Assembly: GCA_963842125.1 (NCBI GenBank) | Contig: CAWJFE010000001.1 | Coordinates: 1,475,592 to 1,539,591, forward strand | DNA length: 64,000 nt | DNA from: an uncultured Alphaproteobacteria bacterium | GTDB taxonomy: Bacteria > Pseudomonadota > Alphaproteobacteria > Rhizobiales > CAWCWK01 | Direction: 5' to 3' | Shown here: positions 25,461 to 29,530 of the stretch, in pieces | How the letters are laid out: every line of letters begins with the position of its first letter | Position numbering within the stretch: position 1 is the first letter of the stretch | Translations under genes and position numbers: made by a program | Notes under the pieces: generated by a model | The model's database searches: none | Told to the model about the DNA's origin: nothing | What the model saw: the letters and a program-made list of their open reading frames with translations, nothing else

Positions 25461-25680
25461 TTAAAGCGTCATTCTGCGGTGTCGTCAGGGATGAGATGAG
25501 ATTGTAGGCGAAGCATGAATCCAATCTGACATATTCAGAAAACGGATTCGCTCGGCAGCACGGCCAGTCTCGATAGGTGGACGCCTTCGCTTCTTCCAAG
25601 CGATAACGCCTTAGAGACCTCTCTCCGAAACCGCTTCGTTGCGTCTGATAGTTCGCCAAACACATAATGCGCCGTGGCCG

Positions 25681-26568
25681 CTAATCCGCATCATCAGTTG
25701 TGCGAAGCCGAAGGAAAAGATCCGCAACACGCTCTACATTCTCAACCCAGCACCTGAGATCGTCTTTGTAAAGGGAGCGAACCTGCTTGTAAGTTGGTCC
25801 GGGCTCAACTGAGATCGTGTTGCCTATACGCTTCTCGACTAAAATTTCAGTTGCTTATCAGTCTGCTAGAAATGGAAACCAACTCCTTTGAGTAAGGCCC
25901 ATAGGAACCTCGCTCATATCGAAGTTTAGTAGGGACCCCAGTTGTGGTCAGGAAATAAGCGATTTTTTGAAACACTGTTCGGCCTACGGGGCGGTGATAT
26001 CGCTCCCGCATAATGCGGGAGGCAACCCCGACAAGTGCGGTCGCAGAAGCATCGATACTCGTAGACGGCTCGGGGGATGCGCTATCTTCTAAAAAGCTGA
26101 AATCAAGCTGCTCGTTAGGAGTGTCATAACGACATAGAGTTCAACATCGATATCATACCGTCTAGAATGCTCAGAAGAGAAGAGGTCCAACGACATTCCA
26201 CTCCAAGTGTCCATTGCCACAACCTAGTGGCGGTACAGCAATCGACTTAACGCCCCAATCTTTGTATGACTTCTCCAGTGAAGCCAAGCCTTCTTTTAGT
26301 CAGAAAGTCGTGACAAAGACCGCCAGTGATCTTTGGTAGGAAAGTTGATAATAGCATGCTTGCTGTCTCTGAAAATATATGGCTCTCCGAGACGCACATC
26401 GCCGCGTTTGCAACGCTGGACGTAGTCCGTATACATCTCCGGAAATTCTTTTTTGAAAGCGAGAGCAATACCTTTGCCCATCACTCCAACGCAGTTGACA
26501 GTGTTGACCAAGGCATCCGCTTTGGAGTCTAGGAGATTGCCAATTTTTGCATTGATGATAGCCGTCAC
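25681..26568 (-). pseudogene. darG: darG-like antitoxin gene (macrodomain ADP-ribosyl glycohydrolase + C-terminal domain), disrupted by four frameshifts
   Basis: Frame A (26568-26299): MTAIINAKIGNLLDSKADALVNTVNCVGVMGKGIALAFKK...INFPTKDHWR. Frame B (26299-26174): LKEGLASLEKSYKDWGVKSIAVPPLGCGNGHLEW. Frame A: DIDVELYVV. Frame B (26092-25850): FQKIAYFLTTTGVPTKLRYERGSYGPYSKEL. Frame A runs to TAG 25683-25681. Confidence 0.8.
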
Positions 26569-27158
26569 GCCCTGCCGAAAAATAGTTCGGTAGATACCTC
26601 TGTCGGTAGGCTACGCCACTGCGCTTGCACGCGCTCGACAGCCCGCTCGCCACATACATATGCCCCCCTAACCATCACGGGAGGCACAACATAAGGAACT
26701 AGGACTTCTGCGCATTTCGCCGATTTCTTCCGCCAATACTCAATTATATCATCATCGTTCCAATATGTTGCGAATGTTCTATCGCGATCCACGATCCCGA
26801 TGCCGTGTGGCAATTCTGAAATCGGACGTAGCTGGAAGCCGCGTTTTGATCCGTCACGACAGCGCCAGTCGTATGAATGACAGCGCGGATCGACGCGCAG
26901 AACGCAAATGTTTCCTCTCTGATTGATCCTTTTCCAAAGCATTGGATTTCGAGCGCATATATATAGGTTTACATACTCATGAAGGCGAAGCCCGTTCGGA
27001 ACTCTTTTAGCCCGCCTCTGCTGAATTTCGTCATCTGCTATCGACTGATGAGTAACGTTTGACACCCGTTCATGAGAAGGCAAACCGTGCTGTCGAACAG
27101 ATGCGAGGTTGGCGATCGGCAGGATGTAGCAGACCTCTGTCAGCTCAGCTTCAATCAT
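26565..27158 (-). CDS. darT: DarT-like (DUF4433) DNA ADP-ribosyltransferase toxin; ORF open but probably corrupted internally
   Basis: 197 aa with HEYVNLYICARNPMLW, IVDRDRTFATYWNDDD and SAKCAEVLVPYVVPP. ATGA overlap with darG. The conserved TD.NAAS-type segment is only readable in the +1 frame (26884-26819). Confidence 0.7.
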   Translation of the reverse strand: MIEAELTEVCYILPIANLASVRQHGLPSHERVSNVTHQSIADDEIQQRRAKRVPNGLRLHEYVNLYICARNPMLWKRINQRGNICVLRVDPRCHSYDWRCRDGSKRGFQLRPISELPHGIGIVDRDRTFATYWNDDDIIEYWRKKSAKCAEVLVPYVVPPVMVRGAYVCGERAVERVQAQWRSLPTEVSTELFFGRA

Positions 27159-27160
27159 GC

Positions 27161-29530
27161 CTACCTACGTTCCTCACATCTCCACCGCCTTCTTCTTCCA
27201 CATCGTCCGCGTCCCCGGCCGACCGCGACGAGCTCCGCCCCTTGACGTTGGCGCGGCTCTTGCCGCCCCGACTCACGCCCCACGGCATCGTCAACCGCAG
27301 ATTGCCGCGCCAGCGGATCGTCGGCAACCGCCAATTCCGTCGCCTCCAGCCGCTTGATCTCGTCGCGCAGGCGGGCGGCCTCCTCGAAGTCGAGATTGGA
27401 GGCGGCCTCGCGCATGCGCTTTTGCATGTCGTCGAGCACGGCGCGCAGGTTCTGGCCGACGGGGACGGTGTCCTCCTCCACCTCCACGCGCACATGGTCG
27501 CCCTCGTAGACCGAGGAGAGGATGTCGCCGATATTGCGCTTCACGCTCTCGGGCGTGATGCCGTGCTCCGCGTTGTAGGCGATCTGCTTCTCGCGGCGGC
27601 GCGCGGTCTCGGCCAGGGCACGCTCCATCGAGCCGGTGGTGCGGTCGGCGTAGAGGATGGCCTTGGAATCGACGTTGCGCGCGGCGCGCCCGATGGTCTG
27701 GATGAGCGAGGTCTCGGACCTGAGGAACCCTTCCTTGTCGGCGTCGAGGATCGCGACGAGCGCGCATTCGGGGATGTCGAGCCCCTCGCGCAGCAGGTTG
27801 ATGCCGACCAGCACGTCGAAGGCGCCGAGCCGGAGGTCGCGGATGATCTCGATGCGCTCCAGCGTGTCGATGTCGGAATGCATGTAGCGCACGCGCACGC
27901 CCTGCTCGTGGAGGTATTCGGTCAGGTCCTCGGCCATGCGCTTGGTGAGGACGGTGACGAGCGTGCGGTAGCCGGCGTCCGCCGTGCGGCGGATCTCGTC
28001 GAGCACGTCGTCGACCTGGGACTTGGCGGGGCGGATCTCGACCGGCGGATCGGTGAGGCCGGTGGGGCGGATGACCTGCTCGGCGAAGACGCCGCCTGCC
28101 TCCTCCATCTCCCACTTGGCCGGCGTGGCCGAGACCGCGACCGTCTGCGGGCGCATCGCGTCCCACTCGTCGAAGCGCAAGGGGCGGTTGTCCATGCAGG
28201 AGGGGAGGCGGAAGCCGTATTCGGCCAGCGTCGCCTTGCGGCGGTAGTCGCCCTTGAACATGGCGCCGAGCTGGCCGATCGTGACATGGCTCTCGTCGAC
28301 GAAGACGAGCGCGTCGTCGGGCAGGTATTCGAAGAGCGTCGGCGGCGGCTCGCCGGGGGCGCGGCCGGTGAGATAGCGCGAATAGTTCTCGATGCCCTGG
28401 CAGGAGCCGGTCGCCTCCATCATCTCGATGTCGAAGGTGGTGCGCTGGTCGAGACGCTGCGCCTCGAGGAGGCGGCCGGCGGCGGTGAGCTCGATGAGGC
28501 GGGCTTTCAGCTCGGTCTTGATCGACTGGACGGCGCGGCCGAGCGTGGGTTTGGGCGTCACGTAATGGCTGTTGGCGTAGATCTTGGCGGACTGCATCTT
28601 GTCGGCCGTGTGCCCGGTGAGGGGATCGAAGGCCGTAATGCTCTCGATCTCGTCGCCCCAAAGGCCGATGCGCCAGGCCTGGTCCTCGAGGTGCGCCGGG
28701 AAGAGCTCGATCGTATCGCCGCGCACGCGAAAGGTGCCGCGCACGAAGTTGATGTCGGTGCGCTTGTATTGGAGGGCGACGAGATCGGCGAGAAGCTGGC
28801 GCTGGCTGATCGTCTCGCCGACCTTCACCTCGAAGGTCATCGCCGTGTAGGTCTCGACCGAGCCGATGCCGTAGATGCAGGAGACCGACGCGACGATGAT
28901 GACGTCGTCGCGCTCCAGCAATGCGCGCGTCGCGGAATGGCGCATCCGGTCGATCTGCTCGTTGATCGACGATTCCTTCTCGATATAGGTGTCGGAGCGC
29001 GGCACGTAGGCTTCGGGCTGGTAGTAGTCGTAATAGGAGACGAAATACTCGACCGCGTTGTTGGGGAAGAAGCTCTTGAACTCGCCGTAGAGCTGCGCCG
29101 CCAGCGTCTTGTTGGGCGCGAGGATGAGGGCGGGCTTCTGCGTCGCCTCGATGACCTTTGCGGCCGTATACGTCTTGCCCGAACCGGTGACGCCCAGCAG
29201 CACCTGCGTCGCTTCGCCGTTCCGCACACCCTCGACGAGGTCCGCGATCGCCGTCGGCTGATCGCCCTTGGGGCTGAATTCGGAGACGATCTCCAGCGGA
29301 ATGCCGCCCTCCGATTTCTCGGGGCGCGGCGGGCGATGCGGCACGAAGGGTTTGCGCCCCGCCGCGATGCCCGCGATCTTCTCCTCGAGCGCCTTGACCG
29401 TCGCGGTATGGCCCATCGCCTCCAACGTGCCGCCGGACGACAGCTCAGGCGCCTGCCGGAAGCCCGATTGCGGAGCCTCGGCCATGCCGGATGCGGGATT
29501 GGAGCGGACGGATTTCGTGCGTTGTGCCAT
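27161..29530 (-). CDS. uvrB: Excinuclease ABC subunit B
   Basis: [12 protein letters not shown] Walker A, helicase motifs, and UVR domain [18 protein letters not shown]. Preferred start ATG 29530 (MAQRTKSV). The frame of the last ~45 codons is doubtful (see findings). Confidence 0.93.

Follow-up and report, generated by a model that had tools for sequence, protein, structure and literature searches.

The locus raises the question of whether a toxin gene of the DarT family that begins directly behind the repair gene uvrB is functionally and transcriptionally coupled to it, as one reading in the preliminary description held, or whether it occupies an insertion hot spot, the alternative offered there. 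The window, i.e. the whole 64-kb stretch of DNA that was analysed, has a GC content of 0.678 and, judged by the similarity of its UvrB, probably derives from a member of the Hyphomicrobiales. Between positions 25485 and 27160 the GC content drops from about 0.68 to 0.497, and no other kilobase of the window is low in GC, which confirms the AT-rich islet reported earlier and identifies it as foreign by composition. The islet consists of exactly two genes, darT and darG, both on the uvrB strand, with no further genes.

26565..27158, minus strand: darT, putative pseudogene, an open 197-codon reading frame with a compensated frameshift pair
26817..26885, minus strand: out-of-frame stretch of darT (ORF residues 93-114), located by three-frame translation, homologue alignment and alignment with Thermus DarT (7omv)
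25485..26568, minus strand: darG, putative pseudogene, delimited by tblastn with the intact DarG of loci L081 and L082
26568-26299, 26299-26174, 26178-26128, 26131-25850, 25845-25684, 25687-25601 and 25610-25488, minus strand: the darG segments, from their coordinates and phases

Profile searches assigned the two products to the families proposed earlier, DarT and macrodomain DarG, and to the DarTG2 type. The 197-codon ORF (27158..26565) contains the motifs for which it was first noticed and, as encoded, scores 93.7 bits against PF14487 (cut-off 22.5; profile positions 1-183 of 201) and 95.7 bits against the PADLOC DarT model, rising to 122.2 and 125.2 bits after frame repair, a gain of approximately 29 bits on each of two independent profiles. 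The conserved TDxNA motif falls within the 22 residues scrambled by the frameshift pair, as does the base-coordinating residue: the ORF reads RCRDGSKRGF where homologues carry TDxNA/TDRH, the neighbouring frame (26884-26813) encodes AVIHTTGAVVTDQNAASSYVRFQN, which is the TDxNA motif, and in the homologue alignment the alternative frame restores GAVVTDQNAASSYVRF. The Asn lost from the ORF aligns with H119 of Thermus DarT (7omv), and the base-coordinating residue of the motif (H119 in DarT2, N104 in DarT1) is not in frame. This residue is essential for DarT, alanine substitution of the corresponding position abolishing activity (PMC11543638). A search of 5.8 billion proteins found no DarT homologue closer than about 55% identity, the nearest ones belonging to a variety of metagenomes, and a plasmid search with DarT returned only a Klebsiella match of 26% identity.

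On the sequence evidence darT is read as a pseudogene, and the public-database protein P0001, annotated as DUF4433/DarT, as its frameshift-scrambled product. A different reading is that the 197-aa ORF has been kept as a functional or repurposed protein whose toxicity is checked in trans by another macrodomain hydrolase. The ORF is indeed uninterrupted, the second frameshift restoring the frame, and it retains the ART catalytic Glu (E160 in Thermus DarT; KCAEVLV, invariant in the alignment) in frame together with the NAD-binding residues and most invariant positions. Residual activity of an open ORF with its catalytic Glu would be possible in principle. Retention is nevertheless highly improbable, given that the nearly invariant N-A of TDxNA, the H119 equivalent (PMC11543638), is lost in the scrambled stretch, that darT, with two indels in 594 nt, has accumulated them at the same density as the dead darG, as neutral decay predicts, and that approximately 25 stop-free codons in an alternative frame are not improbable by chance (estimate about 0.3).

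The second gene begins at GTG 26568 and overlaps the darT stop as GTGA, not as the ATGA given previously. All of the motifs by which it had been recognised as a DarG macrodomain gene are present on the same strand, but they do not form one gene: the motifs lie in different frames, with six frame switches over three reading frames, every segment ending in a stop, no continuous open reading frame and a longest piece of 94 codons. The repaired conceptual translation matches the PADLOC DarG model at 300.5 bits (profile positions 2-322 of 329) and Pfam Macro at 62 bits, and in this translation only is an N-terminal macrodomain followed by the family C-terminal domain directly after darT. The Macro match, rather than a NADAR domain, places the cassette in DarTG2 rather than DarTG1, following the classification by antitoxin domain in PMC11543638. 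Among the homologous loci, darG matches were found in 77 of 82, as full-length single alignments wherever the contig permits. The window's darG is likewise interpreted as a pseudogene from its broken frames.

A single genome carries the cassette, with each indel resting on one assembly, and the frameshifts could in principle be sequencing or assembly errors in a low-GC insert that is intact and active in the organism. Consistent with such errors, indels in the tail of uvrB fall in G/C-rich runs and the contig names of the relatives are in the style of a long-read assembler, from which the source may be guessed to be a long-read assembly. Against them, eight frame switches are crowded into 1.67 kb while the first 2.3 kb of uvrB has none, intact ORFs reach 2696 codons, no switch site in the islet coincides with a homopolymer of 5 or more, and a truncated queF nearby, common to a close relative (L165), shows that the neighbourhood truly holds decayed genes. 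An error origin is therefore considered unlikely, and the interpretation of darT and darG as decayed genes is followed here.

The position of the cassette relative to uvrB depends on where uvrB itself ends.

27161..29530, minus strand: uvrB as deposited, 789 aa, identical to P0121 and to the NCBI/ENA protein
27174..27271, minus strand: 3' tail of uvrB with two frame changes, from the tails of relatives and the L165 alignment
27159..27173, minus strand: proximal junction, from blastn and pairwise alignment of the window with L165

The deposited UvrB has intact helicase, UvrB and UVR domains (Pfam UvrB_inter, UvrB, Helicase_C, ResIII and UVR), and the gene is 94.4% identical in nucleotide sequence to that of L165. 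Gap events in the 2.4-kb alignment are confined to the last 100 nt, occurring only at 27264 (+1), 27234 (+3) and 27226 (-2). Two relatives show the native tail ending ...GRPGTR...* in a third frame, within the motif ...G(K/R)PGTR... shared by relatives. The darT ATG at 27158 does lie 2 nt after the TAG at 27163-27161, as first described, but this TAG, to which the deposited frame continues, is not the native stop; the native frame stops at TGA 27176-27174, 15 nt before the darT ATG, and the C-terminus of the deposited UvrB is out of frame. Homology with L165 ceases at 27172, 2 nt beyond the native stop, leaving 13 nt more to the darT ATG. No promoter-like or terminator-like site was found between uvrB and darT, in line with the earlier statement that there is no room for a separate promoter there. 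Two other origins for this junction were considered and rejected: an integrase-type insertion displacing the 3' end of uvrB, as no displaced uvrB 3' fragment is present in the window, and a remnant of the 3' end of hmaA as the source of 'AVEM*' and of GGCGGTG...GGAGATG before darT, as L165 shows AVEM* to be the native end of UvrB. There is no trace of hmaA in the window. A second UVR-domain match was seen in only one of 80 uvrB loci. Upstream of the gene, a LexA-box-like sequence, GTTCACCCTATATTC, is found at a distance of 7 nt from the uvrB ATG and was discounted as a LexA box, near-matches across the window being no commoner than chance.

The region downstream of uvrB was compared in relatives, as had been recommended. 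A UvrB search of genome contigs gave relatives of at most 84% identity among the matches listed, and the close relatives L165 and L166 were found via members of the UvrB cluster; L163, whose UvrB (P0122) had been the second-best match before those two came to light, was rejected as a junction reference, since it has tandem uvrB copies and is only about 80% identical. L165 is syntenic on both sides of the islet, with flanks 89-94% identical, and lacks darTG, in place of which it carries an HD-domain gene and a 176-aa gene at a GC content of 0.456.

L165 12369-14167 and L004 9492-11341: gene pair of an HD-domain protein and a protein resembling the C-terminal part of DarG

The homology break falls 2 nt past the uvrB stop in the window and L165 alike, and from this shared junction it is 11-13 nt to the start of the cargo in either genome. 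In L166 the uvrB stop is followed by AT-rich DNA of a third kind, unrelated to the other two. Close relatives thus differ in the cargo that their conserved flanks enclose, in agreement with the hot-spot alternative. Since an HD-domain gene occupies the sister locus at the same 11-13 nt spacing, it is the site that accounts for the tight abutment.

Coupling would require that darTG be fused to the uvrB transcript and the toxin be co-expressed with the enzyme that removes its adducts. The spacer of 2-15 nt, the shared strand and the lack of any promoter-like or terminator-like site between the genes fit this arrangement, as does the processing of DarT adducts by nucleotide excision repair in E. 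coli (PMC7003065). At other loci darT follows an endonuclease V gene (nfi, L081) at a distance of 6 nt and a Y-family polymerase gene (dinB, L143) at 19 nt. However, darT and darG are both pseudogenes, uvrB and darT are not adjacent in any of 80 uvrB loci or of 82 DarT loci, the unrelated HD-domain gene of L165 has the same spacing, and the other upstream neighbours of darT are heterogeneous (TIR, AcrB, LemA, citrate synthase, GDP-mannose dehydratase). A bias towards repair genes among these neighbours was rejected, nfi and dinB being the only examples in approximately 40 helicase-free contexts; the order hmaA-darT-darG was found in 31 of the 82 DarT loci. It would have been striking for a toxin to be tied to the enzyme that repairs the damage it causes, but the evidence removes that reading: coupling is not supported, is largely refuted and is assigned only a very slight probability. 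Because both genes are broken and the cargo of relatives differs at the same spot, the locus is best explained as a hot spot and not as a working toxin-repair partnership.

A broader survey is consistent with insertion behind uvrB being recurrent. A GC drop exceeding 0.15 was observed in 11 of 63 loci downstream of uvrB compared with one of 62 upstream, by a crude GC criterion applied to about 63 loci that are mostly alphaproteobacterial and mostly from distant genera. In a small sample of low-GC ORFs, at least 8 of 32 downstream had PADLOC matches and none of 15 upstream; the downstream matches include a type I-C retron, two DpnI-like enzymes, a dGTPase-like protein and the PADLOC candidate families PDC-S31 (twice) and PDC-S45. 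The uvrB 3' flank as an insertion hot spot is thus the supported explanation, favoured over functional coupling, and in Alphaproteobacteria small defence cargos appear to have landed repeatedly at the uvrB 3' end. A literature search for the uvrB 3' end of Hyphomicrobiales or other Alphaproteobacteria as a defence hot spot found no such description. Hot spots flanked by core genes are known in the E. coli pan-genome (PMC10121019) and the P. aeruginosa core (PMC10250203), and share with the uvrB site conserved flanks, varying low-GC cargo of defence type and an absence of mobility genes inside; the uvrB site differs in that its cargo is tiny (one or two genes) and starts 2 nt after a stop codon.

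On its distal side the variable region is bounded by a decayed gene.

25176..25373, plus strand: 3' fragment of queF (residues 90-154 of 154), by blastn to annotated plasmid-borne queF and by tblastn
25375..25446, strand not assigned: copy B of a 72-nt repeat, with an 8-bp-stem hairpin, between the end of darG and the queF stop
24863..24934, strand not assigned: copy A of the 72-nt repeat, orthologous to the single L165 copy (14512-14588)

The queF fragment, 69% identical over 65 aa by tblastn and lacking the N-terminal 89 aa, converges on uvrB. The L165 remnant keeps only aa 91-116, and homology between the two loci resumes at window position 25261. The variable region is therefore flanked by uvrB on one side and by the queF remnant, then csp and SLT genes, on the other. 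Within the window the repeat occurs in two copies only, copy B being absent from the corresponding position in the L165 alignment; its folding is no better than that of shuffled sequence (z -1.4), and its exact core is absent from all fetched loci. Both copies lie on one side of the islet and do not flank it in the manner of att-type repeats. The islet contains no mobility genes and the window no tRNA, as distinct from an integrase- or transposase-type island, and tRNA and Rfam RNA-gene scans of the window gave no matches.

Taken together, the islet is quite probably what remains of a DarTG2 cassette that was acquired horizontally and lodged in a hypervariable cargo site just past the uvrB stop, and the cassette is a decayed representative of a known DarTG system at a cargo hot spot. 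Characterised DarTG2 systems (Thermus aquaticus, M. tuberculosis, EPEC; PDB 7omv, 7omu) likewise have a DarT (PF14487) gene followed by a macrodomain DarG with the family C-terminal domain, in the same order and with the same close spacing, and the conceptual products of the window align over the full profile length. The window differs in that its genes are disrupted, with the base-coordinating residue out of frame, and in that its cassette adjoins uvrB, whereas known systems lie beside dnaB in M. tuberculosis or within prophages or defence islands. Helicase-associated variants also resemble the locus. DarHTG combines a UvrD-like DarH with DarG3, DarH being required for defence (PMC13069673), and both there and in hmaA-darT-darG, as in the window, darT lies a few nt downstream of a gene of superfamily-1/2 helicase fold on the same strand. 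The helicase in those systems is a dedicated defence component (HmaA being an SNF2/NOV_C helicase), whereas in the window it is the housekeeping gene uvrB, at what L165 shows to be a cargo site.

A possible course of events is that the living cassette worked like other DarTG2 toxin-antitoxin or abortive-infection modules and, given a spacer of only 13-15 nt, probably depended on read-through from uvrB for its transcription. The toxin would have been lost first, when a frameshift removed the TDxNA base-coordinating motif; it is proposed that this freed darG from selection, so that its six frame switches then built up. If that order is correct, the remnant is a clean example of toxin-first decay in a toxin-antitoxin pair. 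The boundary at the uvrB stop may reflect selection on uvrB purging deeper rearrangements, rather than cooperation between DarT and UvrB, and cargo turnover would most likely proceed via recombination in the conserved flanks.

The 11-13 nt starts of both sister cargos are tidier than random insertion with purifying selection would give, and a site-specific mechanism could be involved. A more speculative proposal, thought improbable, is that the uvrB stop serves as a docking site for promoter-less two-gene modules of toxin-antitoxin type, read through from uvrB and possibly damage-inducible, with a shared antitoxin domain like the DarG C-terminus and a swapped toxin (DarT in the window; an HD-domain, dGTPase-like protein in L165 and the distant L004), the DarTG remnant representing one state of modular site-specific exchange. 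New systems might be sought at the uvrB 3' end, the pair of an HD-domain gene and a DarG-C-like gene being one example.

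GC content was 0.497 over 25485-27160 and 0.62-0.74 in all other kilobases of the window, bearing out the abrupt AT-rich islet of the preliminary description. Its assignment of the first islet ORF to DUF4433/DarT was likewise confirmed by profile searches (PF14487 DarT, 93.7 bits; PADLOC DarT, 95.7 bits), and the motifs quoted for a second, macrodomain/DarG-type gene were all found downstream, but spread over several frames. Gene order was as follows:

27161-29629, minus strand: uvrB ORF, with the full set of UvrB Pfam domains
27174-27271, minus strand: uvrB 3′ tail, in which two indels shift the frame when compared with two close relatives
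27158-26565, minus strand: DarT ORF of 197 codons, matching PF14487 and PADLOC DarT
26568-26299, 26299-26174, 26178-26128 and 26131-25850, minus strand: darG segments 1-4, in alternating phases
25845-25684, 25687-25601 and 25610-25488, minus strand: darG segments 5-7, in alternating phases

Within the DarT ORF, residues 93-114 (CHSYDWRCRDGSKRGFQLRPIS) were without counterpart among homologues, and the neighbouring frame over 26884-26813 encodes AVIHTTGAVVTDQNAASSYVRFQN, which fits the DarT-family block G-V-V-V-T-D-x-N-A-A-S-x-Y-V-R-F. With the frame repaired, the match rose to 122.2 bits in Pfam (93.7 as encoded) and to 125.2 bits in PADLOC (95.7 as encoded). The ORF thus owes its openness solely to a second indel that brought the frame back after approximately 22 scrambled codons. 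In alignment, the Asn of TDQNA corresponds to H119 of Thermus DarT (7omv), the target-base-coordinating residue, whose counterpart in DarT1, N104, is required for both activity and toxicity (PMC11543638). The darG remnant was mapped by three-frame translation and tblastn, with two intact DarG proteins as queries, taken from the loci of DarT homologues (L081, L082). It runs from a GTG at 26568 to a stop at 25487-25485 (minus strand) with six frame switches across the seven segments, and the sequence it shares with the end of darT at the stop codon reads GTGA rather than the ATGA first described. The stitched conceptual DarG covered PADLOC DarG profile positions 2-322 of 329 (300.5 bits); darG matches were present at 77 of the 82 homologous loci, full-length (~370 aa) and in a single alignment where the contig permits.

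These indels are probably not artefacts. Sequencing or assembly error is an improbable source, given intact ORFs as long as 2696 codons and normal codon-position GC elsewhere in the window, the absence of gaps between the first 2.3 kb of uvrB and the sister genome, and the coincidence of none of the eight frame-switch sites with any of the islet's seven homopolymers of at least 5.

The uvrB 3′ end was compared with two close relatives located via a 90%-identity UvrB cluster, the syntenic sister genome (L165) and a second relative (L166). Relatives' UvrB tails terminate ...G(K/R)PGTR...(K/R)R*, that of L166 ending ...GRPGTRAGKKGKVREI*, and a native-type tail is present in the window in a third frame, with its TGA at 27176-27174. 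Gap events relative to L165 at 27264 (+1), 27234 (+3) and 27226 (-2) amount to two frame changes, such that the deposited 789-aa UvrB (P0121) has 36 out-of-frame residues at its C-terminus, where the conserved GRPGTR...KKK motif is missing, with the UVR domain untouched. The described start of darT 2 nt after the uvrB stop is therefore true of the deposited ORF but is a by-product of the out-of-frame tail, the native spacing being 15 nt. At the other end of uvrB, GTTCACCCTATATTC (29537-29551, minus strand) departs at a single position from the LexA box of Alphaproteobacteria, GTTC-N7-GTTC. It precedes the start codon by 7 nt, inside a 60-nt intergenic region, and cannot be told apart statistically from chance matches across the window.

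The L165 locus, from a 3.56-Mb contig, was collinear with the window on both flanks; at the nucleotide level most blocks were 89-94% identical and two were 81-83% identical. Homology ends at 27172, 2 nt beyond the native uvrB stop, and restarts at 25261 (L165 14190), within a 5′-truncated queF fragment converging on uvrB. Between these breaks the window holds 13 nt, darT, darG, a 72-nt hairpin repeat and further queF fragment, and L165 holds 11 nt, an uninterrupted HD-domain gene of 423 aa (matching Pfam HD and, weakly, PADLOC dGTPase) and a 176-aa ORF joined by an ATGA overlap, at a GC of 0.456. In L166 (89% identity) an unrelated third sequence (GC 0.447) directly follows the uvrB stop. Three different low-GC sequences thus occupy one position in three related genomes.

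Several smaller features border this cargo. The queF (preQ1 synthase) fragment at 25176-25373 (plus strand) retains only residues 90-154, without the catalytic Cys region; the L165 piece is shorter still (aa 91-116), so truncation predates the window/L165 split, and queF was near uvrB at none of the 80 other uvrB loci. The 72-nt direct repeat (24863-24934 and 25375-25446; copies 90% identical, the only two in the 64 kb) contains a perfect 8-bp-stem hairpin, CCTTCCCAnnnnTGGGAAGG, and is a candidate terminator or REP-like element; the copy directly after the queF stop is missing from the corresponding position of L165. The window also has a 181-aa ORF (23708-24253, minus strand) with a coding GC signature and no Pfam or PADLOC match, followed by ~0.9 kb of GC-rich sequence (24254-25175). 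The latter shows no steady coding phase, yet is 88% conserved in L165, whose annotation places a 264-aa gene there.

Among 80 uvrB loci drawn from a collection of species-representative genomes, a GC drop (lowest 500-nt GC within 3 kb of flank more than 0.15 below that of uvrB) was seen at 11/63 loci downstream versus 1/62 upstream. Low-GC ORFs downstream included PADLOC candidates PDC-S31 (twice) and PDC-S45 and a PD-(D/E)XK nuclease; PADLOC matches in low-GC ORFs of upstream flanks numbered 0/15. Genes directly 3′ of uvrB in Alphaproteobacteria included:

L051 9410-11221, 3′ of uvrB: low-GC type I-C retron RT-Toprim (PADLOC 633 bits)
L002 9379-10197, overlapping the uvrB stop: DpnI-like methyl-directed endonuclease
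L008 9867-10640, 3′ of uvrB: DpnI-like methyl-directed endonuclease
L029 9118-9747 and L019 9072-9953, directly 3′ of uvrB in other Alphaproteobacteria: low-GC defence-type genes
L165 12369-14167 and L004 9492-11341, directly downstream of uvrB: HD-domain/dGTPase-like plus small-protein module

An unknown 335-aa ORF begins 1 nt past the uvrB stop at L039 (9122-10129). One metagenomic contig (L163 209-5666) carries two tandem near-full uvrB copies and a 105-nt third fragment of the uvrB 3′ end, representing either an assembly artefact or a genuine duplication there.

The adjacency of uvrB and darT did not recur: darT was within 7 kb of uvrB at 0/80 uvrB loci, and uvrB was present in 0/82 loci encoding DarT homologues. 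In 31 of the latter (L083, L088, L099, L102, L103, L128, L134 and 24 others) darT lies 3′, usually by 4 nt, of a ~1180-aa SNF2 + Helicase_C + NOV_C (DUF3883) helicase, identified as HmaA by full-length PADLOC matches of 624-644 bits. Helicase-associated DarTG variants (DarHTG) are on record (PMC13069673), but have a UvrD-like helicase and DarG3 in place of this hmaA-darT-darG (macrodomain) arrangement. Other upstream neighbours were mixed (endonuclease V, DinB, TIR, AcrB, LemA, citrate synthase, GDP-mannose dehydratase). Intact darTG pairs follow endonuclease V (nfi) by 6 nt at L081 (6933-8234) and a Y-family DNA polymerase (dinB-like) gene by 19 nt at L143 (2201-4091); two repair-gene neighbours in ~40 helicase-free contexts are too few for enrichment.

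Every sequence criterion marks the cassette as a DarTG2-type module, and since its genes are not intact it belongs to a known family as a decayed representative. A cargo hot spot with its proximal edge against the uvrB stop codon explains the position of the cassette, the insertion alternative raised initially and now supported by the differing cargo in L165 and L166. The other proposal, transcriptional fusion or functional coupling with uvrB, was motivated by a spacing also seen with the unrelated L165 HD-domain gene. Sequence scanning found no sigma-70-like promoter or intrinsic-terminator-like site between uvrB and darT, as had been claimed for the promoter, but tight spacing and an absent promoter are common to the sister's gene and therefore uninformative on a link between DarT and nucleotide excision repair. 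UvrABC handles DarT adducts in E. coli (PMC7003065); at this locus that role remains a coincidence. No report of darTG-uvrB adjacency, or of a defence hot spot beside uvrB, was found in the open-access literature. The likely history is that a minimal darTG pair was acquired and expressed through read-through, that a frameshift then abolished toxin activity, and that darG and the uvrB tail would subsequently have decayed neutrally.

Both sister cargos begin 11-13 nt past an identical junction, and a DarG-C-terminal-like region occurs in proteins of three uvrB-flank cargos (window, L165 and L004), the similarity being weak (BLASTP 1e-5 and 5e-4; PADLOC 3.6e-8). These features leave room for a site-specific, modular cargo exchange system at the uvrB 3′ site, although such a system is judged improbable. 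The L004 HD/dGTPase-like protein is 32.6% identical to that of L165, and the 164-aa protein after it matches the DarG profile over its C-terminal half. The module, found in two different Hyphomicrobiales genomes as proteins of 423 and 452 aa each followed by a 164-176-aa protein whose start overlaps the preceding stop, may represent a pair of toxin-antitoxin-like or defence type that is so far undescribed.
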